Source: a virus (Duplodnaviria; Heunggongvirae; Uroviricota; Caudoviricetes). From it: a DNA stretch of 14,020 nucleotides. A program made the translations under genes and the position numbers. The notes beneath the pieces are model-generated. The model searched no databases. It had not been told where the DNA came from and saw nothing but the letters and a program-made list of their open reading frames with translations. Positions 1 through 14,020 of this stretch are shown here, piece by piece; positions within the stretch are counted from its first letter, which is position 1; every line of letters begins with the position of its first letter. The stretch covers positions 1 through 14,020 of IMG/VR virus record IMGVR_UViG_2737471843_000003; one strand, 5' to 3'.

Positions 1-342
1 ATGATGAAAAAAAGTATTCTGACGTTTCTGTTACTCACCAGTTCTGCAGCGGCGCTGGCTGCACCGCAGGTGATTACCGTCAGTCGTTTTGAAGTGGGTA
101 AAGACAAATGGGCGTTTAATCGCGAAGAGGTGATGCTGACTTGCAGACCGGGTAATGCTTTGTATGTCATTAACCCAAGTACCCTCGTGCAGTATCCTTT
201 AAACGATATCGCACAAAAGGAAGTTGCCAGTGGGAAGACTAAAGCCCAACCCATTTCGGTGATTCAGATTGATGATCCTAACAATCCCGGCGAAAAAATG
301 AGTCTGGCACCGTTTATAGAACGAGCTGAAAAACTCTGTTAA
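1..342 (+). CDS. yebY: Small secreted protein with N-terminal signal peptide, DUF2511/YebY-like
   Basis: ORF track 113 aa. The N-terminus [23 protein letters not shown] looks like a Sec signal peptide with an AxA cleavage site. I recognise the sequence as E. coli YebY from memory, not from a search. A hairpin plus T-run follows the stop. Confidence 0.6.
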
Positions 343-371
343 TTACCTAAAATAGCCTTTTGATTTCCAAT

Positions 372-413
372 AAAAAAACCGCCTCAGTTCTTTCACCAGA
401 ACGGGCGGTTTTT
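372..413. terminator. Rho-independent terminator downstream of yebY, A-run / GC stem / T-run, potentially bidirectional
   Basis: AAAAAAACCGCC at 372-383 pairs with GGCGG at 404-408, with an inner GTTC/GAAC pairing, followed by TTTTT at 409-413. The A-run on the other side would make it usable from the minus strand as well. Confidence 0.6.
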
Positions 414-469
414 AACATTTCAGCTGATGACCACCACGCTTTTTATTGACCATTTTGCACGCAAACTGG

Positions 470-500
470 AAAACCTGGCGTCGTCATCTATTCTTAAAGG
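470..500 (+). promoter_or_regulatory. Sigma-S-type promoter for sdsR
   Basis: A -10 element TATTCT at 489-494 preceded by C at 488 (the -13 C typical of sigma-S promoters), placed 6 nt upstream of the proposed SdsR 5' end at 501. No convincing -35 element. Confidence 0.45.
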
Positions 501-569
501 GCAAGGCAACTAAGCCTGCATTAATGCCAACTTTTAGCGCACGGCTCTCTCCCAAGAGCCATTTCCCTG

Positions 570-603
570 GACCGAATACAGGAATCGTATTCGGTCTTTT
601 TTT
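570..603 (+). terminator. Intrinsic terminator of SdsR
   Basis: GACCGAATAC (570-579), loop AGGAATC, GTATTCGGTC (587-596), then TTTTTTT (597-603). Read directly from the sequence. Confidence 0.75.
581..603. other. Putative attL core, the last ~23 bp of sdsR
   Basis: A tyrosine integrase gene ends 130 bp downstream. The terminal 23 bp of ryeB/sdsR has been reported as a recurrent phage attachment site in Salmonella and E. coli. The exact crossover cannot be determined from one junction. Confidence 0.4.
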
Positions 604-640
604 AATTGTATTTAAAATCAATTAGTTGCAAACGTCTCCC

Positions 641-670
641 CGAAATTACTCGAAATTTACTCGAATTTCT
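641..670 (+). repeat. Three tandem 10-11 bp direct repeats, candidate arm-type integrase binding sites
   Basis: CGAAATTACT (641-650), CGAAATTTACT (651-661), CGAATTTCT (662-670), read directly. They sit between the putative core and the int 3' end, like the P'1-P'3 arm sites of lambda attP. Confidence 0.4.
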
Positions 671-734
671 GTATTCCGGTCTTTTTTGGTTATATCACAA
701 CCAAAACACATTTAACAATCCATTTACGTTAAAA

Positions 735-1811
735 TCAGAGCAGTAAGTACGTTTTTTCTCTCTCATCAAGATACATTTTTGTTGTCTTCTCCGATGTGTG
801 GCCAAGTAGACGTTGAGCAAATTCTTCCCCACATGTTTCTTTGTACAATCGTCCAGCCAGGCTTCTGATCTCGTGAAAAGTTGGTGGGTTTTCACTGAAC
901 TGGATACCTGTTAATTTTCTGGCTGCGACAAATTTTTTTGTCAGGCCGTCCGGGTGAATGCTGCCGTCAGGGCTGTTTTTTCTAATCCCGGCACTGATTA
1001 GAAAATCTCCCCGGCTTACCAGGCGGCACCGTTCAACTACTGTACCAAGACGTAAACCAGCGACCGGAAGGCTGAGTGACAGGGGGATAGCAATCATCAT
1101 TCCTGTCTTAATTTGCCTGATGTGAAGACGATCATCATAAATATCACTGAACCGCATATTCGTTATGTCTTCGCGACGTTGTCCTGTTACAAGGGCTAAG
1201 TCCATAGCTAATGGGAACCATGCCGGAAGTTGATCTGCTGCCTCCCTGATGCAGTTGTATGTCTTTAGTTTCAGCCGTTCTCTTGTAACTACTATTTTCG
1301 GTGCTCTTGTTGGCGTTACTGGATTTTGAGATATACGCCCTTCAACAATGGCTTCGCGGAACATATCAGATAACACAGAACGCATTGATCCTGCCATCGT
1401 GTTTTTCCCTCCTTCAATCCACAAATCAAGAAACTCGGCAATATGGCGAGTGGTTATTTCTGTCAGTAAGATCCCTCCTAATTTTTCTTTTATTGTTTCC
1501 AGTTGATTTCCCCGAATTTTATAAGTATTTCTGGACACTTTTCTCCTTATAAGAATCGTTTTGTAACGTTCAATCCAGTCTGCCATAGTAAATGAGTCGA
1601 ACCCTTTAAGTTTTTCAATTAAGGCAGCAGGAGAGTAGTTTTTGTATATATAATGATTTGCTTCAATTGCCTGCGCGATTGCATCTCTTCTTGAAATTTT
1701 ACCTAGTGTAAATTCTTCTTTCGTAAGAGGGTTGCGCCAGTAATATGCTTTGTCCCTCCTTCGATATGTTAAGTTCCTAGGCAAATTGGGATCGTATTTT
1801 TTCCGCTGCAT
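735..1811 (-). CDS. int: Tyrosine recombinase, lambda Int-family integrase
   Basis: ORF track 358 aa. The N-terminus resembles the lambda Int arm-binding domain. The C-terminus carries the catalytic signature [11 protein letters not shown]...[15 protein letters not shown] (R, HxxR, Y). Its start overlaps the xis 3' end. Confidence 0.9.
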
Positions 1812-2058
1812 GTTTTAACTTCTCCAGTAACGGACTGTCTCTCCCTTGTCGCCCATTAGGCTGATGGTGTGTTATATCGGTATCAACCTTATTTGGGTTG
1901 ATATAGAAAGCCTCCGGAACCACCCTGTAACTCCTCCCGTGTAGTTCAGGTGCAGGATAAATGTTTCCATTCCTTGCCCATCGTCTCAGCGTTGATATTG
2001 ATGGTGGGTTATCCGGATATCTGAGTTTTCCCCACGTTTTGAGTGTCACAAGATTCAT
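1777..2058 (-). CDS. xis: Excisionase (Xis-like)
   Basis: The pattern VTLKTWGKL...STLRRWARNGNIYPAPELHGRSY resembles the lambda Xis winged helix. It overlaps int by 35 bp. I prefer the start at 2058 (AGAGG 7 nt upstream) over the track start at 2064. Confidence 0.7.
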   Translation of the reverse strand: MNLVTLKTWGKLRYPDNPPSISTLRRWARNGNIYPAPELHGRSYRVVPEAFYINPNKVDTDITHHQPNGRQGRDSPLLEKLKHAAEKIRSQFA

Positions 2059-2080
2059 TGCCATACCTCTTACGATATGA

Positions 2081-2109
2081 CCGCCAGTAAATATACAGAA
2101 TACTGGCGG
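2081..2109. promoter_or_regulatory. Perfect 9-bp inverted repeat upstream of xis
   Basis: CCGCCAGTA (2081-2089), 11-nt spacer, TACTGGCGG (2101-2109). It lies about 20 bp upstream of the xis ribosome-binding site with no adjacent T-run, so a protein-binding site or RNA hairpin is more likely than a terminator. Confidence 0.3.
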
Positions 2110-2164
2110 ACGTGATTGATTTTTAATAATCAGCTATGAAGTTATAATTTGGATATAATGCAAC

Positions 2165-2353
2165 TCACGAGGGCCGAAGTTTCTCGCAATTAAAATTTAT
2201 CAGCTTTACTTTCTGCTCTCTGGAAACGCCTGCTTCTTTTTTCCCCGAGAGCATTTTTTCGCATTCTGATTTAGTTAGTTTAGATTTTGAATATCTTGTC
2301 CAGTTAGTAGGAGTGCCACCTTCCTTTTCAATAGTGGCGGTAATTTTATACAT
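2165..2353 (-). CDS. Small hypothetical phage protein, 62 aa, at the Rac ydaC position
   Basis: In frame with track ORF 2165..2425. An internal ATG at 2353 is preceded by GGAGG with 5-nt spacing, and overlaps the lar stop by 8 bp. The family is not confidently recognised. Confidence 0.5.
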   Translation of the reverse strand: MYKITATIEKEGGTPTNWTRYSKSKLTKSECEKMLSGKKEAGVSREQKVKLINFNCEKLRPS

Positions 2354-2540
2354 GAACACCTCCATTATTATTTCCAGTGGTTCGTTTATTCCATCGTTCG
2401 AGTGCTTCTTTTTCACTTCCACCATAGCCGGTTCGGGATTCGCATCCGTTACACTTCGCGCGGTAATATCCTGAAATGGCTTTCACCGTTACTGATGGAC
2501 AACCACAAAAAGGGCATGGTTTGACTTTTTCATACCGCAT
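2346..2540 (-). CDS. ralR: Lar-family restriction alleviation protein (RalR-like)
   Basis: Track ORF 2346..2555. The CPFCG...CNGCE zinc-ribbon-like motif and ALERWNKR are typical of the Lar family. A start at 2540 gives 64 aa, the Rac RalR length as I recall it. Confidence 0.7.
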   Translation of the reverse strand: MRYEKVKPCPFCGCPSVTVKAISGYYRAKCNGCESRTGYGGSEKEALERWNKRTTGNNNGGVHV

Positions 2541-2603
2541 TGTCTTTTCTCTCATATAATAAAGTTTTGTGATGGCGGTGAGGCTACACCGCCAAAGTCA
2601 ATA

Positions 2604-3707
2604 TCAGGAGCCGATATATTCTGGTTTCATATCTGTCAGTGTCGTTTTATACGCCTCATATAATTCACCCAGATGTGGTCGTGCAGCATTCAGCGTATTT
2701 TCCAGAGCAGTAAATTTTTGTTCTGCTTCTGGATCACCTGATGAAGGCAGGTCATTTATCATCTTCTCGATACTGGCAATAGCATTGAGACGGTGATGAC
2801 GCCGAACCACTTTTCCTTTAAGCTCGGCAAAGAATTCGCCGATCTGGTTTTTCTGATCCTCTATCTCTTGGCGTAATGCAGTGGTTTCCTCAGTCGTGGC
2901 CGCGCTTTCTATACGCTGCCGGAATTCATCAATCCACGCTTCGTCAATACGCTGTTCGATGGTTTCTGTTCGCTGCTCGCTTACCTCGCTATAATTCTGT
3001 ACCGACACAGGATTGATGATTTTTTCCTGTGGCTCTTCCAGTTCGTCCGGGGTATACACGCCCAGGATGACGTCAGGACAATAAAGGCGAGCCCAGTATT
3101 TCAACGCCAGATAGGCGAGCTGTTGTTTCGGGTTTGAGGTCCATAAAGGAGAATTACGCGTAATCACGCTGGAAAGAAACACCGGTTCTCCCCAGGTAAT
3201 CTCACTTTCACCGCGAAGAACTGCACCAACTCGAACTGAGAGACCATACTCATCTTCACTGGTCCAACATGGGATCGTTTCTTTTTTCTCATAGATTCCG
3301 CCTCCTTTGGCCGTTTTCTTAACGATCTCCACTCGGGTGCGAGAGCATTTCTCCCAGTCTCCCTCGTACTTGTAATGGAAGCGACCTACAATTGCACTTG
3401 AGCTAGAGATCACAGCGTTAACCAGTTGTGCTTCATAACCCAGAACTCCGTTTACCAGGTGTGTTTTCTGAGCCACAGCGTAGGGGTTCATGCCCCATTG
3501 CATAGCTTGCATGATGATTGCCATGCAGTCGGCAGGATTTCCGCGAAGGTGATCGGGAACTGTGACGGTGGCCTGTGCCATCAACCCGGCTACTGCCTGA
3601 AGTTGCGTCAACGCCTGAACGTTAAAAATAGTGTTACTGGCAGAAATGGTATTTGGTGTCTGCTCTGTCGTGATGATATTGGTATTTTGCATGGTCAGGT
3701 TCTCCAT
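2604..3707 (-). CDS. Single-strand annealing protein, RecT/Redbeta superfamily, partner of RecE
   Basis: ORF track 367 aa. The core ADCMAIIMQAMQWGMNPY...VNGVLGYEAQLVNAV fits the RecT/Redbeta pattern. It sits immediately downstream of recE with a 1-nt stop/start overlap. It is clearly not the canonical 269-aa K-12 RecT sequence. An alternative start at 3692 has GGAG upstream. Confidence 0.7.
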   Translation of the reverse strand: MENLTMQNTNIITTEQTPNTISASNTIFNVQALTQLQAVAGLMAQATVTVPDHLRGNPADCMAIIMQAMQWGMNPYAVAQKTHLVNGVLGYEAQLVNAVISSSSAIVGRFHYKYEGDWEKCSRTRVEIVKKTAKGGGIYEKKETIPCWTSEDEYGLSVRVGAVLRGESEITWGEPVFLSSVITRNSPLWTSNPKQQLAYLALKYWARLYCPDVILGVYTPDELEEPQEKIINPVSVQNYSEVSEQRTETIEQRIDEAWIDEFRQRIESAATTEETTALRQEIEDQKNQIGEFFAELKGKVVRRHHRLNAIASIEKMINDLPSSGDPEAEQKFTALENTLNAARPHLGELYEAYKTTLTDMKPEYIGS

Positions 3708-6700
3708 TAAGCCAGATGCAGTGCTTCAAGACGACGAAGATCAAAGTCGTTTAATTCGTCGGTATAACTTTCGGTAATCGGTGCTGGCCAGTTGTTTGTC
3801 TCCAGGGCTTCGTTTATCTGGCGTAGCGTCCGGCGATATTCCTGTCGACCAAGTTCAAGGAGTTCCTGCGAGGCTTCCACGACTGCCACCCAGTGATAGC
3901 CAGCATCTTTGTTGACGAAGATCCAGAAAAATTTGTCCAGGTTTGCCACATCGCAATACATTGCGGCGCTGAGGTGATAATCACGCTCAATAATTTCACG
4001 GTGCAGGCGATCTTTAAGTCGTTCCTGCCGCACATAACCGAGGCTGACTGACTTCACGTCAGCGCAAATGCTTTCGTATGGCAGCCGGATTTCGATATCA
4101 GGACGGACCCTGATTTCCAGCCCGGTTTCTTCATCAAACCCGAAATAGCTGATTTCAGATTTGCGATCCGGGTGGTTGAGTAGCCTTGCTGCATCGGTAT
4201 TGTTTTGCAGTGCCGCGTGAATATTTTTTGCCTGTTCATACATATCCGGACTGATAAACGTTTTCCCGGCGTTTTCTTCTTGCTGGCGTTTTTGCCAGTC
4301 CTCCAGTGTCACCAGTTCCGGGCGAATTTTCCGTGCGATTTCGGTTAATTGCTCTTTTGTGCCACTGATGTTGTAAGGCAAAGATTTAGCACGTTCTTTT
4401 TTTGCCAGTTCTGGATCTACAGTTTCAATTTGATCCAGAAGCTGCTCCCGTGCTCCACTGGTTTTCAACAGAGGAGGGAGGCTTGCGTTGTATTCTTTAA
4501 TACAGGCTTTCATTGCTGATGCTGTGTGTTTTTCCCCCTCAGGAATACGCCGAAATTCCACCGGAAGCGAACCGTAAAGGATGCCTGTTTCTTCGGCCCC
4601 AGCACTTACAGACAGTGGCTGTATAAGAGTGCTGTTGTAGCTTTCGATCCACTCTTTCATCTGCTCTGGTGTCATCAGTGCTGGCAGACTGGCATTGTGT
4701 TTTTTAATGATGGCGATCAGTTCGTTAGAAGTAGTAACCACATATTCAGGAACCGGTACCGGAATGGCATATTCATCTGCGAATTTATCCGTTTCCAGAA
4801 CATAGCTGTGAATGATCCGCCCACGCAGCAGTGCGTCACTTTCCTCGTTCGGAATAGTTCCGGCAATGTGCCGCCCGTGGTAATACATCAGGCTGATACG
4901 GGCATCCTTCAGCATCGTGCTGCTTATTCCGTTGGCGGAGTGATAAACCTCGTTCGGGAGGTTTTCATAGCGGCCTGGCTCGAAATATGACGGCCACATG
5001 ATTTCAGTTGCTACAGGAGCTGACGCTTCGCCAGTTTCATCACTGCAATTGCGATGCGGATCGCTGTCAGCATTCTCATTGTGCTGATGTTCAGCGCCTT
5101 CCATTTCCTCCGGATCTTTTTCCAGAGATTCATCCAGATTTTCTTCATTAAATGTTTCCTGATACGTTGCGTCGCCCATCGCCGCGCCACAATCAGGGCA
5201 GTTGCCCCCACCGATCTGACCGCAGGCGGTGCAGACTTTTTCCGGTTCTTGTTGCTCTTCTGGTTCAGGCTGTTTCGTTTCTGGCTCGTTTTGTTGCGTA
5301 TTTGGGCTGTTTTGTTCCGCTTTCTTGTCGTTCTGTTCCGTTTCTTGCTGGTTCTGGTTCACAGAGTCGAGGGTTTCAATCCCCTTAACCCATTTCGGAT
5401 CGTTCGGGTCGCTAATCCCTTCAACAAATTCTCCGCGAGAGGCAGCCAGTAATTTGTCTGCATCGACAGGATTTTTGGGCGGAATGTTTTTCCGGGCTTC
5501 ATGGAGTTCTGCCCGCAGTTTCTGATATTTCGCATCAACAGAATTTACCTGTGACTGAGCATCCAGCGGCTGCGTGTTCTGATGATGTTCAGTTGCATTC
5601 GGTTCCACTGTTTCAGCCGTTGCCTGTTCATCTGCCATTGCGCCAGATGGTTGTGGTTTTTCTTCATCGTCCTGTTTTCCTTCTTCTGTTACTCGCTGCG
5701 GCATCGGGGCAGAGGAGCGACCGCAGGCAATATCCACGATTTCCGGATCAGGGTTGGCATGATCGGTTTCAGTCAGTACTTTGTTCAGATATTCAGTGAC
5801 GTGTGCGGGGATGACCTCGATCCCAATTGGTGCTTCTTTCACGGACGCAACCACGATGGCGCGGGAATAATCCAGCCCGCCAGGCATGGTGATGAATTTG
5901 TCGCGGAAAACAGAAAAGGGTGGTTTATTTTCAGCGATAATTTCCTCAATGCGTTTAGCGTGTGCCGGATGAAGGTTATAAATGTCCACGTCCATTGAAC
6001 GGGCCAGTACGCCAGTGGCTACATCGCGTGCCAGTGACGTCAGATCGTGGACGAAACCTTCGCCGCGATCGGTGAGGTTCCCGCCGCCAGCATTAGCACC
6101 GGAAGCCGTGCGAGTGATGCGTGAAACACGATTTCCTTTCATCCACTCTTTTGTCAGCAGACCGCGATCGGTGTAGTCTGCGTCCAGGTATGCTTCGAAA
6201 AAAGCAGTCATCAGCCCCAGACTTGAATTGCCTGGATTAGGGAAAACTTTGTCAGTATCACGAACCAGTCTGTGAAGATCGCGAATCTCCAGCGGGTCGA
6301 GCAGGCTGGTTTTGTGGGAAACAGCTAGGGCAGTAACAGCTGGTAGTTCTTCGGCCCGTGCAATATGTAATGTCTGGAGTTCGTCGCGTGAAACGTGCGT
6401 TACCGGTTTTTCGCTGCCGTGTTGAGCAAGCCAGCGAATGGGCAGCTCTTGGCCAGAAATCGGGAGTAGCATATTCTCCTCAATCTCAGTCATGTCTTCG
6501 CCATTAACATTGGTATTGTCAGTGCTGTCTGGTTTGTACTGCGCAGAGGATGAGGGCGCGATAAATACCATTGTGATGCCATCTTCCCCGCCTTTTTCGT
6601 AACGGTTGCAGAATTCCGTATCAAATACGCCTTCTGGTGGAAGGTCATCAACAACGGGCAAATTGACGCGAACAGGTTTTTTAAAGTCATCTTCATCGTA

Positions 6701-6856
6701 GCCAGCATCGTCAATCGCAACAGCACCACGGGAGATGGCAATGGATAATTTTTTCGCTTCAGCCCAGTAGAAACCGCCTTTAATACCGAGACGTTTTCTT
6801 ACTTTGTCATTTTTTGCTTCGTAATACAGTGGGTAAACTTGTTTATCGGTGCTCAT
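3707..6856 (-). CDS. recE: Exonuclease VIII (RecE-family 5'-3' dsDNA exonuclease)
   Basis: ORF track 1049 aa. The C-terminal domain carries PD-(D/E)xK-type residues (RPDIEIR...CADVKS) and long stretches I recognise as RecE-like. It is about 180 aa longer than the 866-aa K-12 RecE as I remember it. Confidence 0.85.
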
Positions 6857-6926
6857 TGTTTTTTAACCTCAACTCAGATTAAAATTACTGCGAGTGATGA
6901 ATAAATGTCCCTGGTTCTTCACTCAG

Positions 6927-6957
6927 GCCTGCACAGTGTGCAGGCTTTCTTTTTTTC
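6927..6957 (+). terminator. Perfect hairpin with T-run in the racC-recE intergenic region, terminator-like only on the plus strand
   Basis: GCCTGCACA (6927-6935), G, TGTGCAGGC (6937-6945), then TTTCTTTTTTT. On the minus strand, which is the operon strand, the hairpin is preceded by an A-run and has no U-tail. Confidence 0.35.
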
Positions 6958-7231
6958 AGATTTCACCTTTTAATTTCATTGCAATCAGAGTTGCCAGAAA
7001 TTCGGCTTTTTTTTCTGCGGGCAGATTCTTTCCTATGTGCACCAGACACATTTTTTTAACACCATCGTTAAGTGTTTTAACGTTGCCTGATGGACCGTCG
7101 ATATCAACCACAGTGAATGGGGTTTCTTTATTTTCTGTCTTAATCACGTAGCCAATACGCTTTCCTTCCAGGCTGACTTCGTGAACAATGTCATCGGTAG
7201 TTACAACAGTGGCTTCATAACTGGTAATCAT
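6956..7231 (-). CDS. racC: RacC-like protein, 91 aa
   Basis: Track ORF 6956..7279. The ATG at 7231 is preceded by AAGGAG with 6-nt spacing and gives 91 aa beginning MITSYEATVVTTDD, recognised as Rac RacC. Confidence 0.75.
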   Translation of the reverse strand: MITSYEATVVTTDDIVHEVSLEGKRIGYVIKTENKETPFTVVDIDGPSGNVKTLNDGVKKMCLVHIGKNLPAEKKAEFLATLIAMKLKGEI

Positions 7232-7305
7232 GTTTTTCTCCTTAATTAAGGTTGAGCGAATCTCTGCCATTTCTGGCATAAATTCAGTTTCGAATAGTCA
7301 ATTAA

Positions 7306-7476
7306 TTAAAGTTCGTGTGCCATCTGGTCTTTTTCGGCACAGATTTCACTACAATATTTTTTCATTTCCGTCGTTGGTATAACTCCACGCATGAAATGAA
7401 GTGGTCTTGTAATGATTTTGCTTTCTTCAATTTCTTTATTGCAAAGGTGATAAGCACATTTTATTTTCTTAGTCAT
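7306..7476 (-). CDS. ydaE: Small Cys-rich protein, 56 aa, YdaE-like
   Basis: Not in the ORF track because it is under 60 aa. Hand translation gives [56 protein letters not shown]. Its ATG overlaps the kilR TGA stop (ATGA). Its size and position match Rac ydaE. Confidence 0.6.
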   Translation of the reverse strand: MTKKIKCAYHLCNKEIEESKIITRPLHFMRGVIPTTEMKKYCSEICAEKDQMAHEL

Positions 7477-7697
7477 CACCATGACTCCGCCTTTACAGGT
7501 AAACCATCACGACCGAGGAAGACTTTAATCATGCGGTCAGTAATGCATGTTTTTGTGGTCAGGTTACGAATATAAAGTTTTCGCTTTTTAATATTGTTTG
7601 CCGAGGCGATATATGTCCGACCTTCATGAAGAACATAATCGCCAGGAGTCACACACTGACGTGGTATTTCATCAGTTCCGAAGTGATGAGCAATCAT
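7476..7697 (-). CDS. kilR: KilR-like cell-division inhibitor, 73 aa
   Basis: Track ORF 7476..7709. The ATG at 7697 is preceded by GGAG and gives a 73-aa protein beginning [15 protein letters not shown], recognised as Rac KilR. Confidence 0.75.
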
Positions 7698-8106
7698 AAT
7701 TATCTCCATTTTTACAAATGAATTTTGTCGATGCGGTGCCTGGTGCCTCCAGGTGACGTTAACCAGTTAACAATTAACGCCGGATATTTCACCCATAACT
7801 CTGCTACGAAGGACAATAGCTTTTTAACTGTTCCGCGTGCGCTTAGCCGCATTCACCGCATCACAAAATTCACTTTAAAAAGGGGCGGCAGGGCAGCCAC
7901 GGAGTAGAACTGATGCCGCCAAAGACTACACACAGCAATGTCGTTATTTACAACCGGAGGCGCACTCCCACCATTTAAATTTAACAGACAAAACCGACTC
8001 TTTATGAATACCGGAAATGCGCCTTCGTGTTGTGCGCCTGTCTTTTTACCACTTCAGGCTCGGTGGTATACTGGAGTTCTCACACAACCAGTAATAAGGT
8101 ATTCCT

Positions 8107-8301
8107 ATGGATAATAAAGACAAAGCCTGTCTACTTGCTTTAGCTTTCAGCATCAGATCGCAGCGAGAAACAACTCATCAATAATTTTTCTCGGAAATCG
8201 AGAATGCTGAGAATGAGTTTTTGTCACTACTCAATGAACGTGATGCTAAAAAAAGCGCCGATTCACTTAAGGCTTGGGCGAAACTAGGCTCTTCAAAATA
8301 A
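8107..8301 (+). pseudogene. Small ORF interrupted by an in-frame TAA: 25 codons, stop, 38 codons
   Basis: ATG at 8107 gives MDNKDKACLLALAFSIRSQRETTHQ, TAA at 8182-8184, then in the same frame FFSEIENAENEFLSLLNERDAKKSADSLKAWAKLGSSK ending at TAA 8299-8301. An extended -10 (TGgTATACT, 8064-8072) lies upstream. Its 3' end overlaps the convergent 72-aa gene. Confidence 0.3.
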
Positions 8302-8485
8302 TTGCTTCTGTAGCGGCATGAACAACTGTTTTTGCCGCCTCTTCAACTTCCTTGTCTGGACGACCAGCCTTTACTTTTTCTGCAATGACCTCCAGCACAG
8401 TTGGAAGAACCTTGCTAATAAGCATGGCTGCCACATCTTTGCTGCACAATTGACCGTTAATAACAACCAGATCTTCACCAACCAT
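8267..8485 (-). CDS. Hypothetical small protein, 72 aa
   Basis: Track ORF 8267..8542, whose first codon is TTG. The internal ATG at 8485 is preceded by AAGGGGA. It is the first gene downstream of the candidate pL-like promoter. Function unknown. Confidence 0.45.
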   Translation of the reverse strand: MVGEDLVVINGQLCSKDVAAMLISKVLPTVLEVIAEKVKAGRPDKEVEEAAKTVVHAATEAIILKSLVSPKP

Positions 8486-8660
8486 CTTTTTTCCCCTTAA
8501 CGCCGGGTGGCGGAACGTTTTATCTACTGCGCTTTGTATCAATCAACAACTGCCGTCATGTTCGTATGCCTCAGGCTGGCTACTTAGCCCTATTCAGTGG
8601 CTGGATAACTCGAGGTATTGTCCTGCCGTTCTCTGGTGGGGCGTTGTTTGGATATGGCAA

Positions 8661-8689
8661 ATGCTCACATATCGTGAGTGTTTTGTCAA
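8661..8689 (-). promoter_or_regulatory. Candidate pL-like leftward promoter with an operator palindrome in its spacer
   Basis: On the minus strand: TTGACA (plus 8684-8689), 17-bp spacer, GAGCAT (plus 8661-8666, weak -10 with TG upstream). The perfect palindrome CTCAC-N5-GTGAG at 8664-8678 overlaps the spacer and -10 and matches the operator motif found between the repressor and ydaS. Confidence 0.4.
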
Positions 8690-8730
8690 CTCAATATGTG
8701 AACAATGTTGCTTTTGGATTTTTGATGGAC

Positions 8731-8765
8731 AAAAAAAAGCCCTCGCTAATAGCGAGAGCTTTTTG
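8731..8765. terminator. Rho-independent terminator downstream of the repressor gene, bidirectional shape
   Basis: A8 (8731-8738), GCCCTCGCT (8739-8747), loop AAT, AGCGAGAGC (8751-8759), then TTTTT. One mismatch in the stem. Confidence 0.6.
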
Positions 8766-8790
8766 ATTGGAATCGAGGGAGATTAAAGGC

Positions 8791-9180
8791 TTAGGAGGAT
8801 TTTTTCTGTTGCCTGCTTCTTAGATATTTTTCCACATACTCATCAAGCTCTTGAAGACGGATTTCGAACAGATCAATCATGCGTGCTTGTTCCGATCCTG
8901 GGAGCTGATTAAACAGTTCTAGCATTTTTTTCTGGTTATCATTTAACCACGAGTAAGTGTTTTCCTGTTCACCGAACATTAATTCTGCGGGGGAAATGCC
9001 TAGTACCTGGCCGAGGATGATCGCATCCTCAGCCCCCACACTCCTGGTGCCAGCTTCGTAGTTAGCAATACGAGAAGAACCTGACCAACCACATAGTTTT
9101 GCCAGGTTTCCCATACTTAATCCTCGATTTAGGCGAGTGGCTTTTAGTCGCTCGCCTATTTGTTCTGCAATGGTTTTCAT
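8791..9180 (-). CDS. XRE-family HTH prophage repressor (cI/RacR-like), 129 aa
   Basis: Track ORF 8791..9285. The HTH region is LSMGNLAKLCGWSGSSRIANYEAGTRSVGAEDAIILGQVLGISPAEL. I prefer the ATG at 9180; the track start at 9285 is a TTG that would overlap the ydaS start. The gene is divergent from the Cro-like gene. Confidence 0.8.
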   Translation of the reverse strand: MKTIAEQIGERLKATRLNRGLSMGNLAKLCGWSGSSRIANYEAGTRSVGAEDAIILGQVLGISPAELMFGEQENTYSWLNDNQKKMLELFNQLPGSEQARMIDLFEIRLQELDEYVEKYLRSRQQKKSS

Positions 9181-9274
9181 AGCTCCGATTTTATCACGAT
9201 GTGTGAAATTAGCGGTACTCACATATCTGTAGTTGATCTTGCTCACGAAATGTGAATAATAGAAACAGGAGGTA
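9181..9274. promoter_or_regulatory. Divergent promoter/operator region with three operator-like sites at ~24-bp spacing
   Basis: TCACGATGTGTGA (9194-9206), CTCACATATCTGTAG (9218-9232, half-site match) and TCACGAAATGTGA (9243-9255). Rightward promoter: TTGATC (9233-9238), 16 bp, AATAAT (9255-9260). Leftward -10 TAAAAT (plus 9188-9193) sits 7 nt from the repressor ATG. Confidence 0.6.
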
Positions 9275-9277
9275 ATG

Positions 9278-9520
9278 ATGAACAAAATTTCAACATATCG
9301 AAAACAGCTTGGGCTGTCTCAAAGACAACTTGCTGTTCAGTTAGGGTGGATACAAAGCCGACTGGCAAATTACGAAGCAAATTTTCGTACCCCTGGGCTA
9401 GAGGAGTGCAGAAAAATTGTTTCTACCCTTAATCGGCTTGGCGCTCATTGTGGACTTGACGATGTATTCCCCCCAGACGGTAAGCATAGCGAAAACAGCA
9501 TAGGAGCGGTTGATTCATGA
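9278..9520 (+). CDS. ydaS: Cro-like HTH protein, YdaS-like
   Basis: Track ORF 9275..9520. AGGAGG at 9267-9272 favours the ATG at 9278. The HTH region is LGLSQRQLAVQLGWIQSRLANYE. It is the first gene of the rightward operon and its stop overlaps the ydaT start (ATGA). Confidence 0.7.
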   Translation: MNKISTYRKQLGLSQRQLAVQLGWIQSRLANYEANFRTPGLEECRKIVSTLNRLGAHCGLDDVFPPDGKHSENSIGAVDS

Positions 9521-9939
9521 AAATCAGGCATGAGCATATCGAATCAGTGTTGTTGGCCCTGGCAGCCGAAAAAGGGCAGGCGTGGGTCGCTAACGCAATT
9601 ACTGAAGAATATCTGCGCCAGGGGGGCGGCGAATTGCCCCTTGTACCAGGCAAGGACTGGAACAATCAGCAGAATATCTATCACCGTTGGTTGAAAGGTG
9701 AAACGAAAGCGCAAAGGGAAAAAATTCAGAAACTGATCCCTGCGGTTCTGGCAATTCTTCCGCGCGAGCTGCGTCACCGACTCTGCATCTTCGATACCCT
9801 GGAACGCCGTGCATTACTGGCGGCGCAGGAAGCGTTGAGTACGGCAATTGATGCGCATGATGATGCAGTCCAGGCCGTTTACCGGAAAGCACATTTCAGC
9901 GGTGGTGGGTCGCCCGGCGATTCTGTCGTAGTGCATTGA
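9517..9939 (+). CDS. ydaT: YdaT-like protein, 140 aa, reported as a toxic prophage protein
   Basis: ORF track 140 aa. I recognise the sequence MKIRHEHIESVLLALAAEKGQAWVANAITEEYLRQGGGELPL as Rac YdaT from memory. It is translationally coupled to ydaS. Confidence 0.75.
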   Translation: MKIRHEHIESVLLALAAEKGQAWVANAITEEYLRQGGGELPLVPGKDWNNQQNIYHRWLKGETKAQREKIQKLIPAVLAILPRELRHRLCIFDTLERRALLAAQEALSTAIDAHDDAVQAVYRKAHFSGGGSPGDSVVVH

Positions 9940-9983
9940 TTGAAATTAATCGTGCCGGATTGTTTTGTTCGGTATCAGTTAAA

Positions 9984-10004
9984 TGTAACGCTGCGAGCGT
10001 TACA
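9984..10004. promoter_or_regulatory. Perfect 21-bp palindrome 12 bp upstream of the ydaU-like start codon
   Basis: TGTAACGCT-GCG-AGCGTTACA with 9-bp perfect arms, read directly. The same core recurs inside the downstream gene. Confidence 0.45.
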
Positions 10005-10016
10005 AGGTGAAAACAA

Positions 10017-11153
10017 ATGGCTTCAAACTGGATAAAGCTCGAGGTTATTACGCCGGATAAGCCGGAAATATTCAGGCTTGCTGAGATTCTGAATATTGAT
10101 CCAGATGCCGCATTAGGGAAGGTTATTCGCTTCTGGGCATGGGCGGATCAACAAATGATAGACGGTAATGCAGATTGTAACGCTCGCGGCGTTACAAAAA
10201 GTGCAATAGATCGCATCACTTTTATGGCTGGTTTTGCTGATGCGTTAATTCAGGTTGGATGGCTGGTCGAAAATGACGGTGGGCTTTCTCTACCTAACTT
10301 TGAACGTCATAACGGAAAAAGCTCTAAAAAACGGGCGGTTACAAACGAGCGAGTTACAAAAATACGCGAACTGAAACGAAAAGGTAACGCTGGCAGCGTT
10401 ACACAAACGGATCAAAAAGCGTTACCAGAGGAAGAGGAAGAGGAAGAGGAAGATCTAAATACTGATCTAACCCATCCCAAACCCTTCCCTTCCGGAAGGG
10501 AGTTTCGGGATTTTGTGGCTGGAGTGCTTGAGGGGAGATTATCTGGCGGTACTGCAGCGGAATTTTGTAATTCTGCGGTGGTGGCGTTGCAGGCCGCTGG
10601 CCTGGATGTCTGTCGTGAGTATCCGGTACCAGAGCGTGGAGACGGTTGCGGAGGTCGGATTGATATCGTCGTGACTGACAGGAACGGTGTCCGGTGTGGG
10701 ATCGAACTTGACCGAAATTCTCCACGACAAAAATCACTGCTCAAAATCGGCGCTGTTGAAACCGGGATATGTGTCTTGCGGCGCAGTGATATCGCAAGGC
10801 ACACCGAGCAGGGAATTCTGGTTATCGGTGGGGCTGTTCGCCAGAAAAAATTTGACCCGTTGTCAGTTGATCTGCCCGACTGGTTGCCAGAAACACTCTG
10901 GCATGAGTGGGTCCAGTTCAGGCAGGCATTGCGAAAACCGATTCGAACGGAGCAGGGCGCTAACGGGGCGATACGGGAACTGGAAAAATTCCGTCAGCAG
11001 GGGTTTACACCTGAGCAGGTGATTCGACACAGCATCGCCAATGAATACCAGGGCCTGTTCGCGCCGAAAGGTGTTCGGCCTGAGACGTTGCTCCGACAGG
11101 TTAACACCGTCTCGTTGCCGGACAGTGCGATCCCGCCAGGCTTCAGGGGGTAA
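10017..11153 (+). CDS. ydaU: Replication initiator / replisome organiser, YdaU-like, with a poly-Glu linker and an extra central domain
   Basis: ORF track 378 aa. The N-terminus MASNWIKLEVITPDKPEIFRLAEILNID...VIRFWAWADQQ resembles the DUF1376 N-terminal pattern of lambdoid initiators. It sits just upstream of the DnaC-like gene. It is longer than the 285-aa K-12 YdaU as I recall it. Confidence 0.75.
   Translation: MASNWIKLEVITPDKPEIFRLAEILNIDPDAALGKVIRFWAWADQQMIDGNADCNARGVTKSAIDRITFMAGFADALIQVGWLVENDGGLSLPNFERHNGKSSKKRAVTNERVTKIRELKRKGNAGSVTQTDQKALPEEEEEEEEDLNTDLTHPKPFPSGREFRDFVAGVLEGRLSGGTAAEFCNSAVVALQAAGLDVCREYPVPERGDGCGGRIDIVVTDRNGVRCGIELDRNSPRQKSLLKIGAVETGICVLRRSDIARHTEQGILVIGGAVRQKKFDPLSVDLPDWLPETLWHEWVQFRQALRKPIRTEQGANGAIRELEKFRQQGFTPEQVIRHSIANEYQGLFAPKGVRPETLLRQVNTVSLPDSAIPPGFRG
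10176..10425. repeat. Iteron-like array of GTTACA-core repeats inside the initiator gene, candidate ori
   Basis: TGTAACGCTCGCGGCGTTACA (10176-10196); direct GTTACAAA half-sites at 10338-10345 and 10353-10360; palindrome GTAACGCT-GGC-AGCGTTAC (10384-10402); half-site AGCGTTAC (10418-10425). A-rich stretches lie between them. Confidence 0.45.
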
Positions 11154-11159
11154 CAGACC

Positions 11160-11906
11160 ATGAAAAATATTGCGACAGGAGGCGTTCTGGAGCGTATCCG
11201 CAGACTGACCCCACCACATGTAACCGCCCCATTCAGAACGGTTGCGGAGTGGCGCGAGTGGCAACTTGCTGAAGGGCAGAAACGTTGCGAGGAGATCAAC
11301 CGCTTGAATCGTCAGTTGCGGGTGGAAAAAATCCTGAATCGCTCTGGCATCCAGCCGTTGCACCGCAAATGTTCGTTTGCGAATTACCAGGTGCAGAACG
11401 ACGGCCAGCGATACGCGTTAAGCCAAGCGAAATCCATCGCCGATGAACTGATGACCGGGTGTACAAATTTTGCGTTCAGCGGAAAACCTGGTACCGGGAA
11501 GAACCATTTAGCGGCAGCTATCGGGAATCGCCTGCTGAAAGACGGTCAGACAGTGATTGTGGTTACCGTGGCTGATGTTATGAGTGCCCTGCATGCCAGC
11601 TATGACGACGGGCAGTCAGGCGAAAAATTTTTGCGGGAACTGTGCGAAGTGGATCTGCTGGTTCTTGATGAAATTGGCATTCAGCGCGAGACGAAAAACG
11701 AGCAGGTGGTACTGCACCAGATTGTTGATCGCCGGACAGCGTCGATGCGCAGCGTGGGAATGCTGACAAACCTGAACTATGAGGCCATGAAAACATTGCT
11801 CGGCGAGCGGATTATGGATCGCATGACCATGAACGGCGGACGCTGGGTGAATTTTAACTGGGAGAGCTGGCGTCCGAATGTCGTCCAGCCAGGAATTGCG
11901 AAGTAA
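11160..11906 (+). CDS. ydaV: DnaC/IstB-like AAA+ helicase loader, YdaV-like
   Basis: ORF track 248 aa. Walker A motif [15 protein letters not shown] and Walker B LLVLDEIG are present. It lies immediately downstream of the initiator gene. Confidence 0.85.
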
Positions 11907-11928
11907 TTTTTACCGGGAGAAAAATTTA

Positions 11929-12690
11929 ATGGAGACTGTTTTTGACGCACTGAAAGCAATGGGAAAAGCCACATCCTTAGAACTTGCTGCGCGACTTGGT
12001 ATCAGTCGTGAAGAAGTGCTGAACGAACTATGGGAACTGAAAAAAGCTGGTTTCGTTGATAAAAGCGCGTACACCTGGCGTGTGGCTGATAACAACGTTC
12101 AGCAGGAACAGCCAGCGCCGGAAGAACAGCCGGAAGAAACCACCACGGCAACAGTAGCGAAAATCTCAGAGTGCGATTTAACCGCGACGATTGAACAACG
12201 CGGACCACAAACGGCGGATGAGCTGGCTGCGTTGTTCGGTACCACATCACGCAAAGTAGCTTCAACGCTGGCAATGGCAATCAGCAAGGGGCGTCTGATT
12301 CGCGTAAATCAGAACGGTAAATTTCGTTACTGCATACCGGGCGATAATTTACCAGCAGAGCCGAAAGCTGCATCGGTAACGGAAACTGATGGTAAGGCCT
12401 TTCCTCAGCCCGCAGGTGTTGCGTTACCAGTACAGGAAGCGGCAACACAGGAAGATATTAAAACAGAAACTGTGGCGGACATTGTGCAGTCGCTGCCATC
12501 GTTCACCGAAACGCGAGCGGATGACCTGATTTTACCATCGCTGCATATGGCAAACCGCGAACTGCGTCGGGCGAAAAGTCATGTCCAGAAGTGGGCGCGA
12601 GTCTGCGCCGCGCTGCGGGAGCTGAACAAGCACCGGGATATTGTTCGACAGATTACTGATTCTTCCCGCCGTGTTGTATCGGAAAAGTGA
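11929..12690 (+). CDS. Hypothetical phage protein with two winged-helix-like segments
   Basis: Track ORF 11878..12690. Two ATG starts are possible: 11878 (GGAGAG upstream, overlaps ydaV) and 11929 (GGGAGA upstream). The segments [30 protein letters not shown] and [30 protein letters not shown] look like winged-helix folds. Function unknown. Confidence 0.55.
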
Positions 12691-12705
12691 TTGCCGGAGG
12701 CACTT

Positions 12706-13128
12706 ATGGCAAAAGTATTTACACAAGAAGAGCGGGAAAAAATTAAAGGGCAGGTTGTTGAGCTAGTACGCCGGAGTGGGCGCGAGACGTTACGGCAACT
12801 GGAAGCCAAGACAGGTGCGACAAGATATCTGATGAGCGTTCTCGCCAGAGAGCTTGTTGCCAGTGGCGATGTATACAACTCTGGTTACGGGTTATTTCCG
12901 TCTGAACAGGCCCGTAAGGACTGGCAAAACGCCCGCAAAAAACTCTCCAGGGCAAAGGTGAAAAAAACGGTTGTGGTTGATCCTGACCTTATCTGGTCAT
13001 TACCAGACGGAGAAATACGCCGCTACGACAGGCGCCTGAATATAATCTGTCGCGAGTGCCGGAAGAGCGAAGCTATGCAGCGTGTACTGGCTTTCTATCA
13101 GGGTAATTTTCAGGAGGTAGCGCAGTGA
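12706..13128 (+). CDS. Hypothetical phage protein, 140 aa
   Basis: Track ORF 12691..13128, which begins with TTG. The ATG at 12706 is preceded by GGAGG with 5-nt spacing. Its stop overlaps the GTG start of the methyltransferase gene. Confidence 0.55.
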   Translation: MAKVFTQEEREKIKGQVVELVRRSGRETLRQLEAKTGATRYLMSVLARELVASGDVYNSGYGLFPSEQARKDWQNARKKLSRAKVKKTVVVDPDLIWSLPDGEIRRYDRRLNIICRECRKSEAMQRVLAFYQGNFQEVAQ

Positions 13129-13598
13129 GTGCACCGGCAACCATTCTTGATATGTGCTGTGGCAGTCGCATGTTCTGGTTCGATAAGAATGACGACCGGG
13201 CGATATTTAGCGATATCAGAAAGGAAGAGCACACATTGTGTGATGGACGACGCTTGATTATCAGTCCTGATCTGATAGCTGATTTTCGTGCACTACCATT
13301 TGCAGACGCATCTTTTTCGATGGTTATATTCGACCCTCCGCATCTTGAGCGTGTTGGTGATAACGCCTGGATGGGAAAGAAATATGGACGGCTGAATAAA
13401 GATACCTGGCGTGATGATTTGCGGCAGGGATTTAAAGAAGCCTTTCGTGTGTTGCGTCCATCCGGCGTTCTGATTTTTAAATGGAATGAAACGCAAATAC
13501 CTGTTCGCCAGATATTGATACTGACCGACAGAAAACCTGTTATCGGTCAACGAACAGGAAAAAACGATAAAACCCACTGGATTATTTTTATGAAATAG
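13125..13598 (+). CDS. Small SAM-dependent amino-methyltransferase, DPPH motif, RsmD/N6-adenine-MTase-like fold
   Basis: ORF track 157 aa. Motif I-like ILDMCCGSRMF and motif IV-like IFDPPH occur in the order typical of N6A/N4C/m2G amino-methyltransferases. The GTG start has AGGAGG 7 nt upstream. No target-recognition domain is evident. Confidence 0.65.
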   Translation: MSAPATILDMCCGSRMFWFDKNDDRAIFSDIRKEEHTLCDGRRLIISPDLIADFRALPFADASFSMVIFDPPHLERVGDNAWMGKKYGRLNKDTWRDDLRQGFKEAFRVLRPSGVLIFKWNETQIPVRQILILTDRKPVIGQRTGKNDKTHWIIFMK

Positions 13599-13744
13599 GC
13601 ATCCAGTGAGTAGGTTCGTAAGGTTACAGATACGTATATCTGAATAATTAAATTTAGTTCTGTAAATAAAATTTAATCCTTAATCGGAGGGATTTCTGCA
13701 CCCTCAAATCATCAGGAGGCCGCCCGAAAGGGCGGTAGTGAAAA

Positions 13745-14020
13745 ATGACTGAATTAACCAAAGAGCAATTAATCGAAGAGGCCAAATTAAAAATAGCGAT
13801 TGCGAAATGCCACCCCAATTCAGGGTTGGCACGAGTAGAGGGTGAGTTATTCAAAATTGCTCTGGCATCACTGGAGCAGAATGCACTATCGGGCAACTCT
13901 CCGCTTATTCCTGGTGAAGTGTTGTCCGCAATCCGGGAGGTTGCCAGGATTCGCGCCGATTTCGATGATTTTGACGGTGACAGGCGAGGTATCGGTGATT
14001 GTCTGGATGAGGCCGAGCAA
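13745..14020 (+). CDS. Hypothetical protein, 5' partial ORF running off the window end
   Basis: ATG at 13745 and an open frame to 14020 (92 codons, MTELTKEQLIEEAKLKIAIAK...). It is missing from the ORF track because it has no stop within the window. The upstream signal is weak. Confidence 0.45.
   Translation, partial: MTELTKEQLIEEAKLKIAIAKCHPNSGLARVEGELFKIALASLEQNALSGNSPLIPGEVLSAIREVARIRADFDDFDGDRRGIGDCLDEAEQ

Follow-up and report, generated by a model that had tools for sequence, protein, structure and literature searches.

The window is the 14,020-nucleotide stretch of DNA analyzed here (IMG/VR virus record IMGVR_UViG_2737471843_000003, positions 1 to 14,020; Caudoviricetes). Its minus strand carries a mosaic recE gene, in which an N-terminal half, an acidic linker with a Cys4 knuckle (CxxC-x7-CxxC) and a C-terminal nuclease domain follow one another, and a recT gene directly downstream. 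The features are collected in Table 1. The recE frame starts with an ATG codon preceded by GAGG 11 nt upstream. The start of recT overlaps the recE stop (TAATG), and recT is predicted to be translationally coupled to recE.

Table 1 Features of the recE–recT segment of the window. The pN/pS and pS values come from five genes, the pairs of which are not independent.
Feature	Residues	Positions	Strand	Evidence or remarks
recE CDS (exodeoxyribonuclease VIII), mosaic	1049 aa	3707..6856	-	ORF listing and translation
N-terminal segment; sequence type unlike Rac RecE, 11 aa longer	1-113	6518..6856	-	megablast, BLASTP, anchor accounting
Helical domain; no other stretch of the N-terminal half is predicted with confidence	265-385	5702..6064	-	
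Acidic Q/E/N/P-rich linker	386-620	4997..5701	-	composition, low pLDDT
Motif A; most constrained island of the linker	465-493	5378..5464	-	pN/pS 0.04, pS 0.42
Imperfect 21-bp (7-aa) tandem repeats encoding a Q/N/E/P-rich stretch		5270..5356	-	Tandem Repeats Finder: period 21, 4.1 copies; pN/pS 0.48
Cys4 knuckle, CxxC-x7-CxxC	542-557	5186-5233	-	aligned with Rac RecE knuckle
Knuckle with conserved downstream residues	to 569	5150..5233	-	pN/pS 0.13
Acidic tail of the cassette, ending SDETGE; right-hand mosaic junction	570-615	5012..5149	-	pN/pS 0.83, megablast, alignment
C-terminal PD-(D/E)XK nuclease domain, Gifsy-1/Citrobacter RecE type	621-1049	3710..4996	-	
All-helical insertion inside the nuclease domain	~700-870	4247..4759	-	anchor accounting; pLDDT ~90, all helices
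Catalytic His 685 in IIHSYVLE	681-688	4793-4816	-	aligned with 3h4r RecE chain
Catalytic PD...(D/E)xK motif, VRPD and ADVK	917-920, 932-935	4052..4108	-	aligned with 3h4r RecE chain
recT	367 aa	2604..3707	-	Pfam RecT, E 4.3e-37

The NCBIfam equivalog for exodeoxyribonuclease VIII (NF007259) matches residues 1–1046 of the product at 1524.6 bits (cut-off 1269), which bears out the naming of the protein as RecE in the preliminary description. Both Exonuc_VIII and DUF3799 were matched in Pfam. The N-terminal Exonuc_VIII model (PF06630, E = 6.6e-37, residues 52–189) is covered at profile positions 43–203 only, because the first ~50 residues differ. The sequence-based identification as RecE rests on the NCBIfam equivalog, the Pfam matches, the conserved catalytic H, PD and DxK residues and the coupled recT. 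An annotated recE in NZ_CP169399.1 is 99.9% identical to that of the window, and a megablast search of 5426 complete E. coli genomes recovered at least 80% of the gene in 120 of them. Near-identical genes in these genomes and in phage Rac-SA53 carry the annotation exodeoxyribonuclease VIII. Neither this 1049-residue RecE, which is already catalogued as a variant, nor its knuckle is new. PADLOC returned no defence-system match. With a probability of about 0.85, the region links the domains of a mosaic recE that is otherwise ordinary and intact and belongs to a Rac-like prophage.

The length of ~866 residues given in the preliminary description for K-12 RecE was correct: the Rac-prophage protein of a K-12-like laboratory strain (WP_000105143.1; L001:5696-8296) has 866 residues and the window RecE is 183 residues longer. 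Anchor accounting against Rac RecE divides this difference into +11, +14, +5, +142, +2, +1 and +8 residues. The 142 residues form a repeat-containing helical insertion within the C-terminal PD-(D/E)XK nuclease domain, the 14 residues correspond to two additional 7-residue (21-bp) repeat units in the linker (residues 505–518, positions 5303–5344), and the remainder lies at the N terminus, the linker–nuclease junction and the C-terminal tail. The 14 linker residues are also present in two further prophage loci (L003 and L005), which makes Rac RecE the short form here. A length of 1049 residues is normal among Gifsy-1-type RecE proteins, the members of which found here have 840–1089 residues. By this accounting the extra length is mostly the nuclease-domain insertion and not the acidic linker. 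The tie between extra length and linker or knuckle that had been implied is thus not upheld, since Rac RecE has the knuckle and no more than 14 of the 183 residues fall in the linker. Alignment to Rac RecE, put forward at the outset as a check, gave a divided answer: the Cys cluster is shared and the standard length of 866 residues is not.

The C-terminal domain is a PD-(D/E)XK nuclease with the RecE fold. The segments FHCRVLE, RPD and DVK in the 3h4r chain are the aligned counterparts of its IIHSYVLE, VRPD and ADVK. An I-K-E-Y-N-A-S-L-P unit occurs three times in the helical insertion (z-scores of the internal repeat 9.5 and 7.2), which matched no Pfam family; a SAP/HeH helix-extended-helix motif was considered for it and rejected because the Pfam SAP and HeH models were not matched. 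The 434-residue C terminus is 52% identical over 99% of its length to Gifsy-1 prophage RecE (P0151, P0162), and the EYNAxLP repeat units are common to both. With its motifs intact, the domain would act as has been shown for the family, resecting the 5′ strand from the ends of double-stranded DNA to leave a 3′ tail for annealing by the cognate RecT. BLASTP detected no similarity between the 367-residue RecT and the 269-residue Rac RecT.

Megablast identity to Rac recE begins only at nt 339 of the gene, and the first 113 codons represent a second N-terminal type, which is also carried by L005. Codons 114–615, which encode the linker cassette and the helical region N-terminal to it, are of the Rac type, and codons ~616–1049 together with the downstream recT of the Gifsy-1/Citrobacter type. 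Where the matched gene has a different C terminus, the megablast alignment stops at nt 1758–1845. In other prophages the cassette is fused to an Rv2179c-like DEDD 3′–5′ exonuclease (PF16473) and elsewhere to a short hydrophobic tail, the nuclease being absent. Altogether, at least four C-terminal and at least two N-terminal module types are joined through it. Judged from these junctions, the comparison shows lambdoid prophages apparently swapping nuclease domains and RecT partners at the end of the cassette. A 2023 review still lists the RecE N-terminal region as ‘of unknown function’ (PMC11611040), our literature search found neither a RecE zinc motif nor a function of the N-terminal region reported, and recE serves only as a reporter fusion in the Gifsy paper PMC3121763. 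The N-terminal and central parts probably have an action of their own that does not depend on the nuclease. The separate function proposed for them holds to this extent, on the review's statement and on the occurrence of the cassette with unrelated C-terminal modules.

The acidic, Q/E/N/P-rich low-complexity linker was first delimited at positions 4990–5700, in agreement with the residue range in Table 1. Residues 380–620 (241 residues) contain 54 Asp and Glu versus 20 Lys and Arg, a net charge of −34, and Q, N, P and E make up 66% of residues 495–541. AlphaFold2 pLDDT values fall below 50 at residues 386–437, 493–537 and 559–640, a signal of disorder that is weak by itself because the alignment is shallow; residues 386–620 are probably disordered. 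Direct repeats within recE beyond the 21-bp array are limited to short, chance-level matches. The linker is a conserved cassette in which the pN/pS values mark two islands of purifying selection, one at motif A and one at the knuckle with its downstream residues. Motif A is found in 33 of 142 diverse RecE-family representatives, a search whose 836-position profile includes the nuclease domain, so that its counts describe the whole family and not the cassette. The carriers include Salmonella, Citrobacter and Klebsiella proteins without the knuckle. Homologue searches with the cassette and the N-terminal region yielded almost only near-identical Escherichia and Shigella sequences or fragments and added little depth.

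The Cys motif lies exactly where the preliminary description placed it. The protein contains 10 Cys in 1049 residues, four of them within 15 residues; arithmetic from the Cys frequency gives an expectation of ~8e-5 CxxC-x(4-12)-CxxC motifs per protein this long, and the clustering is not chance. Rac RecE (866 residues) bears the same knuckle, CNACGQTGGDNCPDCG, at the aligned position (BLASTP). The knuckle is intact in 151 of 211 related sequences with variation at the x positions. The Cys columns are kept in 162–211 of the 211, the CPDC half being nearly invariant, and the first Cys has been lost from one abundant class of Shigella/E. coli proteins that lack a nuclease. A 991-residue Salmonella RecE and a 918-residue E. 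coli RecE carry the knuckle as CTGCGA[VI]GGGHCPDC, and in the Salmonella linker the knuckle persists together with GAVMGDATY in surroundings that are otherwise different. Among the 142 diverse family representatives only 8 have the knuckle, and the Gifsy-1, Citrobacter and Klebsiella RecE proteins are without it; across the RecE family as a whole it is dispensable. AlphaFold2 pLDDT is only 54–59 at residues 541–560 versus 31–44 in the flanks, with no more than isolated bridge residues at 541 and 548. No curated zinc-ribbon model in Pfam reached its threshold; the best zinc matches were YhfH (E = 0.019; its 15.2 bits fall below the cut-off of 27), Zn_ribbon_Nudix (E = 0.14) and ZnF_RZ-type (E = 0.57). 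Assignment of the knuckle to a zinc-ribbon family was dropped, as all matches were sub-threshold. For the two predictions recommended at the outset, the low linker pLDDT, from a shallow alignment, favors disorder, and a zinc ribbon was not recovered at the Pfam threshold.

Our best guess is that the knuckle serves as a zinc-stabilized protein-docking node with putative zinc binding. The acidic linker would be a flexible tether in which two short elements, motif A and the knuckle, are under constraint and are retained whatever catalytic module is attached. Coordination of one Zn2+ by the four Cys would give ~30 residues a small, rigid fold on which a protein partner docks. Quite tentatively, the cassette may be a portable adaptor that recruits any fused module, be it a 5′–3′ PD-(D/E)XK exonuclease, a 3′–5′ DEDD exonuclease or a part without nuclease, to one common host or phage partner. 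If so, this could account for the advantage of full-length RecE in linear–linear recombination, which it is reported to enhance (Fu et al. 2012, as cited in PMC11611040).

A doubtful alternative is that the cassette is kept as a DNA-level homology patch for the exchange of prophage nuclease and recT genes, the Cys motif itself being functionless. Megablast matches to genes with unrelated flanks do begin and end at the cassette edges (nt 1393 to ~1845, 84–92% identity), and the variety of modules joined at its two ends fits such a role. However, pS in the cassette is high (0.19–0.42), and motif A and the knuckle are the only places where non-synonymous change is strongly held down, a pattern that points to selection on the protein; the survival of the knuckle with GAVMGDATY in the Salmonella linker speaks in the same direction. 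A homology patch and a protein-level function are nonetheless compatible and not exclusive.

Many Cys4 knuckles bind nucleic acids. By this common property the RecE knuckle could be a nucleic-acid-binding zinc knuckle that holds the second DNA end or the displaced strand, which would explain why full-length RecE surpasses the nuclease domain in linear–linear recombination, which the full-length protein is reported to enhance (Fu et al. 2012, as cited in PMC11611040). This reading is improbable: residues 542–557 contain no Lys or Arg, residues 558–620 contain only two versus 19 Asp and Glu in those 63 residues, and Gifsy-1-type RecE is without the knuckle. DNA binding by the knuckle appears unlikely because it has no Lys or Arg and the segment carries a net charge of −34. 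It is likewise hard to credit that the acidic linker regulates the nuclease or RecT electrostatically or by mimicking DNA within the same molecule, with the knuckle only shaping it. The net charge over 241 residues and the retention of the linker beside different DNA-processing modules would suit this role, whereas the acidic tail evolves almost neutrally (pN/pS 0.83) and also occurs in proteins without a nuclease domain. That the enlargement and the knuckle mark a new RecE variant with a zinc-binding function gained in its linker, as the 183 residues in excess of Rac RecE and the central position of the knuckle might suggest, is very nearly refuted by the knuckle at the aligned position of Rac RecE, by the mere 14 extra linker residues, shared with L003 and L005, and by the 142 residues located in the nuclease domain.

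The finding as originally posed is of little weight, the variant being catalogued and the knuckle not new to it. Some value is left in that the N-terminal two-thirds of RecE improve linear–linear recombineering and the candidates for their role are narrowed to motif A and the knuckle, which appear to be under selection independent of the attached module and are both directly mutable in the widely used Rac RecE.

Rac RecE (nuclease-domain structure PDB 3h4r) is ~91% identical at the DNA level over codons 114–615, a stretch that takes in the helical domain as well as motif A and the knuckle, and shares the C-terminal fold with the catalytic H, PD and DxK. The Rac prophage also has the same gene order, kilR-ydaE-racC-recE-recT-ralR-xis-int. 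In contrast, the first 113 residues of the window RecE are of another type, its linker has two more 7-residue repeats, its nuclease domain is only ~29% identical over the core and carries the added 142-residue helical insertion, its RecT partner is unrelated by BLASTP, and the window prophage adjoins yebY and not ttcA. Escherichia phage Rac-SA53 (KU052037.1) has a 1048-residue recE and a 367-residue recT with the same 1-nt overlap and matches with 97.1% identity over query nt 688–4253. As this megablast match starts at nt 688, the first ~690 nt (~230 recE codons) are unmatched; unlike the window prophage, Rac-SA53 is integrated at ttcA.

Gifsy-1 RecE of Salmonella shares the 434-residue C-terminal domain and the helical insertion with EYNAxLP repeats at 52% identity, and a 973-residue Citrobacter freundii protein appears, on reading of the sequences, to have a closer C-terminal domain. 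The Gifsy-1, Citrobacter and Klebsiella RecE-family proteins share motif A and lengths of 840–1089 residues, but their linkers lack the Cys4 knuckle and have a GxG[IV]F[DS]Vxx[LM] motif instead. Proteins from Salmonella Ituri (P0365) and E. coli (P0504) are among the few that have both. The Qin/DicB-type ‘exonucleases’ of 814–823 residues (for example WP_000048530.1 in E. coli O104:H4) share motif A, the 7-residue repeats, the knuckle and the acidic tail, and some (L005) also the N-terminal region, whereas they carry an Rv2179c-like DEDD 3′–5′ exonuclease (PF16473) in place of the PD-(D/E)XK domain and are not followed by recT.

Translation of the minus strand gives a RecE protein that begins with ATG, with GAGG 11 nt upstream, and belongs to PHROG 607 along its full length. 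It passes the NCBI curated equivalog model NF007259 with 1524.6 bits (cut-off 1269). A megablast search of 5426 complete E. coli genomes found a 99.9% identical gene, annotated recE, exodeoxyribonuclease VIII, in NZ_CP169399.1, and at least 80% of recE in 120 genomes. The gene is a mosaic recE that is already catalogued, and the finding as a whole is of low interest. The 1049-residue reading frame, the acidic linker and the CxxC-x7-CxxC knuckle of the preliminary description were confirmed by translation and composition, at the positions it had assigned to linker and knuckle. Asp and Glu number 54 versus 20 Lys and Arg across aa 380–620. Gln, Asn, Pro and Glu constitute 66% of aa 495–541, a stretch whose coding DNA is an imperfect 21-bp repeat (5270–5356, 4.1 copies, Tandem Repeats Finder) that translates to degenerate heptapeptides. 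Four of the ten Cys residues sit inside the knuckle, within a span of 15 residues; by our own arithmetic from Cys frequency, ~8e-5 such motifs are expected per protein by chance.

Features of the recE locus, RecE protein and related genes (window coordinates unless a locus is named)
Feature	Nucleotides	Strand	RecE residues	Remark
recE	3707..6856	-		3150 nt, 1049 aa
recT	2604..3707	-		367 aa, Pfam RecT; downstream of recE
Exonuc_VIII			52-189	Pfam match
Linker	4997-5701	-	386-620
Cys4 knuckle	5186-5233	-	542-557	16 aa
Nuclease-domain insertion			~700-870	predicted all-helical
DUF3799, PD-(D/E)XK-like			861-1025	Pfam match
Catalytic His				IIHSYVLE, conserved
Catalytic PD			917-920	VRPD, conserved
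Catalytic DxK			932-935	ADVK, conserved
Integrase region	1-342; 735-1811	+; -		adjoins yebY (copD-yobA-holE side)
378-aa ORF	10017-11153	+
DnaC/IstB-like ATPase gene	11160-11906
157-aa ORF	13125-13598	+
L003 exonuclease gene	L003:2582-5053			E. coli O104:H4 C227-11
L005 exonuclease gene	L005:4001-6445			E. coli strain 144

The Rac reference was taken from the locus of a K-12-like laboratory strain (racR ... recE-recT-ralR ... intR-ttcA), whose recE encodes 866 aa, the length given in the preliminary description. In the BLASTP alignment, window aa 48 to ~640 pair with Rac aa 40 to ~615, and CNACGQTGGDNCPDCG of Rac RecE lies opposite the knuckle. The Cys4 motif thus belongs to the standard features of RecE and is not new to the enlarged protein. 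Nor does it account for the size. When the 183 extra residues are apportioned by anchoring on motifs common to both proteins, 142 fall inside the nuclease domain, in the interval from EPG (aa 626) to RPD (aa 918), and only 14 in the linker (aa 505–518), exactly two 7-aa repeat units. The rest precede NTNVNG (+11, an alternative N terminus) or lie at the linker/nuclease junction (+5), past RPD (+2 and +1) and in the C-terminal tail (+8). The 14-residue segment also occurs in the prophage genes of L003 and L005, so Rac has the shorter form at that site.

Many E. coli genes match recE by megablast only from nt 1393 to ~1845, corresponding to aa 465–615; this part of the linker forms a cassette that is both conserved and portable. 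The L003 and L005 genes encode 'exonuclease' proteins of 823 and 814 aa with cassette and knuckle as in RecE, ending in an Rv2179c-like DEDD 3'-5' exonuclease (PF16473). Both genes are placed between dicB/ydfD and xis-int and are not followed by recT, and the L003 protein also has an N terminus that is unrelated. In a four-way alignment the sequences are near-identical through the knuckle to ETGE and unrelated past it. A fourth class, of 646–657 aa, from Shigella and E. coli (e.g. P0303, P0326), has no nuclease domain and carries a hydrophobic tail (VIAAVYGLCANPAGIASAPLIPGIAMMIANKLENFG) shortly after the cassette. PMC12315714 mentions nuclease-less 'RecE-2' proteins, which may be the same class. 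P0303 and P0326 are annotated RecE family exodeoxyribonuclease despite having no nuclease domain.

Selection differs along the cassette. Nei-Gojobori counts added across ten pairs of five genes, which are not independent and give a pattern rather than precise values, yielded pN/pS of 0.04 for motif A at aa 465–493 (pS 0.42), 0.48 for the heptad repeats (pS 0.24), 0.13 for the knuckle plus the following 10-residue conserved segment (pS 0.33) and 0.83 for the acidic tail (pS 0.19). Of 211 related sequences covering this site, 151 keep CxxC-x7-CxxC intact, as 27 variants differing at the x positions. Among the 60 exceptions, 44 are nuclease-less proteins of the 646-aa class (600–649 aa) that have lost the first Cys. 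Nine have Cys-to-Arg (CAARG); eight of these are either labelled partial or carry no annotation, and the only one annotated complete, P0261, ends in unrelated sequence that, on our reading, resembles a frameshift. Four are in-frame deletions fusing GANAGGGN (~aa 253–260) to GGGNCPDC, and three are singletons (Cys-to-Tyr, Cys-to-Gly and a one-residue deletion in the x7 spacer). The 756-aa proteins P0130–P0134 are natural in-frame deletions that join GANAGGGN of the N-terminal region straight to GGGNCPDCG of the knuckle (window aa 549–552). Lost with the deletion are ~290 aa as well as the first CxxC, apparently via repeated GGGN microhomology.

RecE proteins of the Gifsy-1 prophage, Citrobacter and Klebsiella keep motif A, lack the knuckle and carry GxG[IV]F[DS]V in the same linker part. 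When 1.84 billion cluster representatives were searched with a profile, motif A was found in 33 and the knuckle in 8 of the best 142 new proteins. Among those eight, a 991-aa RecE of Salmonella serovar Ituri and a 918-aa E. coli RecE have both CTGCGA[VI]GGGHCPDCGAV[MT]GDATY and GGG[VI]FSVEGL. The linker is thus a series of short conserved elements gained or lost by lineage, of which motif A is widespread and the knuckle patchy.

The RecE N-terminal region was still 'of unknown function' in a 2023 review (PMC11611040), and no mention of the Cys motif was found in the literature searched, which was incompletely covered. The earlier interpretation is partly supported: the N-terminal and central regions plausibly form a separate functional unit, but the knuckle is neither new here nor an explanation of the size. 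We infer that the knuckle could be a zinc-stabilised mini-domain serving as a docking point. A protein partner is favoured over DNA, since the knuckle lacks basic residues and the sequence around it is strongly acidic. Motif A and the knuckle, short, selected and module-independent, remain a modest lead that is testable directly in Rac RecE.

The nuclease core of Rac RecE aligns by BLASTP with aa 900–1025 only, at 29% identity. The nuclease-domain profile matches the crystal structure of RecE (3h4r, E 5.6e-10) as two segments on either side of the insertion, in which a unit around I-K-E-Y-N-A-S-L-P occurs three times (repeat z-scores 9.5 and 7.2 versus shuffles). The 918-aa E. coli relative appears to carry a single unit; the insertion thus seems to lengthen as units are added. 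An impression of SAP/HeH resemblance was unsupported; no Pfam family matched the insertion. RecE-named Gifsy-1 proteins and Citrobacter and Klebsiella homologues share 52% identity over 99% of the 434-aa C terminus, other Salmonella relatives share 67–71%, and a 973-aa Citrobacter freundii RecE-family protein looks closer still in the nuclease domain on our reading of the sequences. Gifsy-1-type representatives span 840–1089 aa, which makes 1049 aa unremarkable.

The recE stop and recT start share one base (TAATG), an overlap that suggests translational coupling. In RefSeq, RecT begins five codons further downstream (362 aa); the record of Escherichia phage Rac-SA53 takes the overlapping ATG (367 aa). 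The window RecT has no BLASTP similarity to the 269-aa Rac RecT, and thus nuclease domain and annealase were exchanged together. Such a joint exchange agrees with the partner specificity established for exonuclease/annealase pairs of phages.

The 378-aa ORF matched no Pfam family and lies directly upstream of the DnaC/IstB-like ATPase gene, in the place occupied by ydaU in Rac. The annotated gene at this position in NZ_CP169399.1, the closest genome found, measures just 789 nt; here, then, window and genome differ. The 157-aa ORF has weak partial methyltransferase-domain matches (Methyltransf_11, E 5.6e-5; Methyltransf_25, E 4e-4). The recE neighbours match those of a Rac-like prophage (kilR, ydaE, a racC-like gene, recE, recT, ralR, xis, int). 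The integrase of K-12 Rac adjoins ttcA whereas that of the window adjoins yebY; the window prophage is Rac-like but occupies another attachment site. In phage Rac-SA53 (KU052037.1), recE encodes 1048 aa and recT 367 aa, with 97% identity across most of the query.
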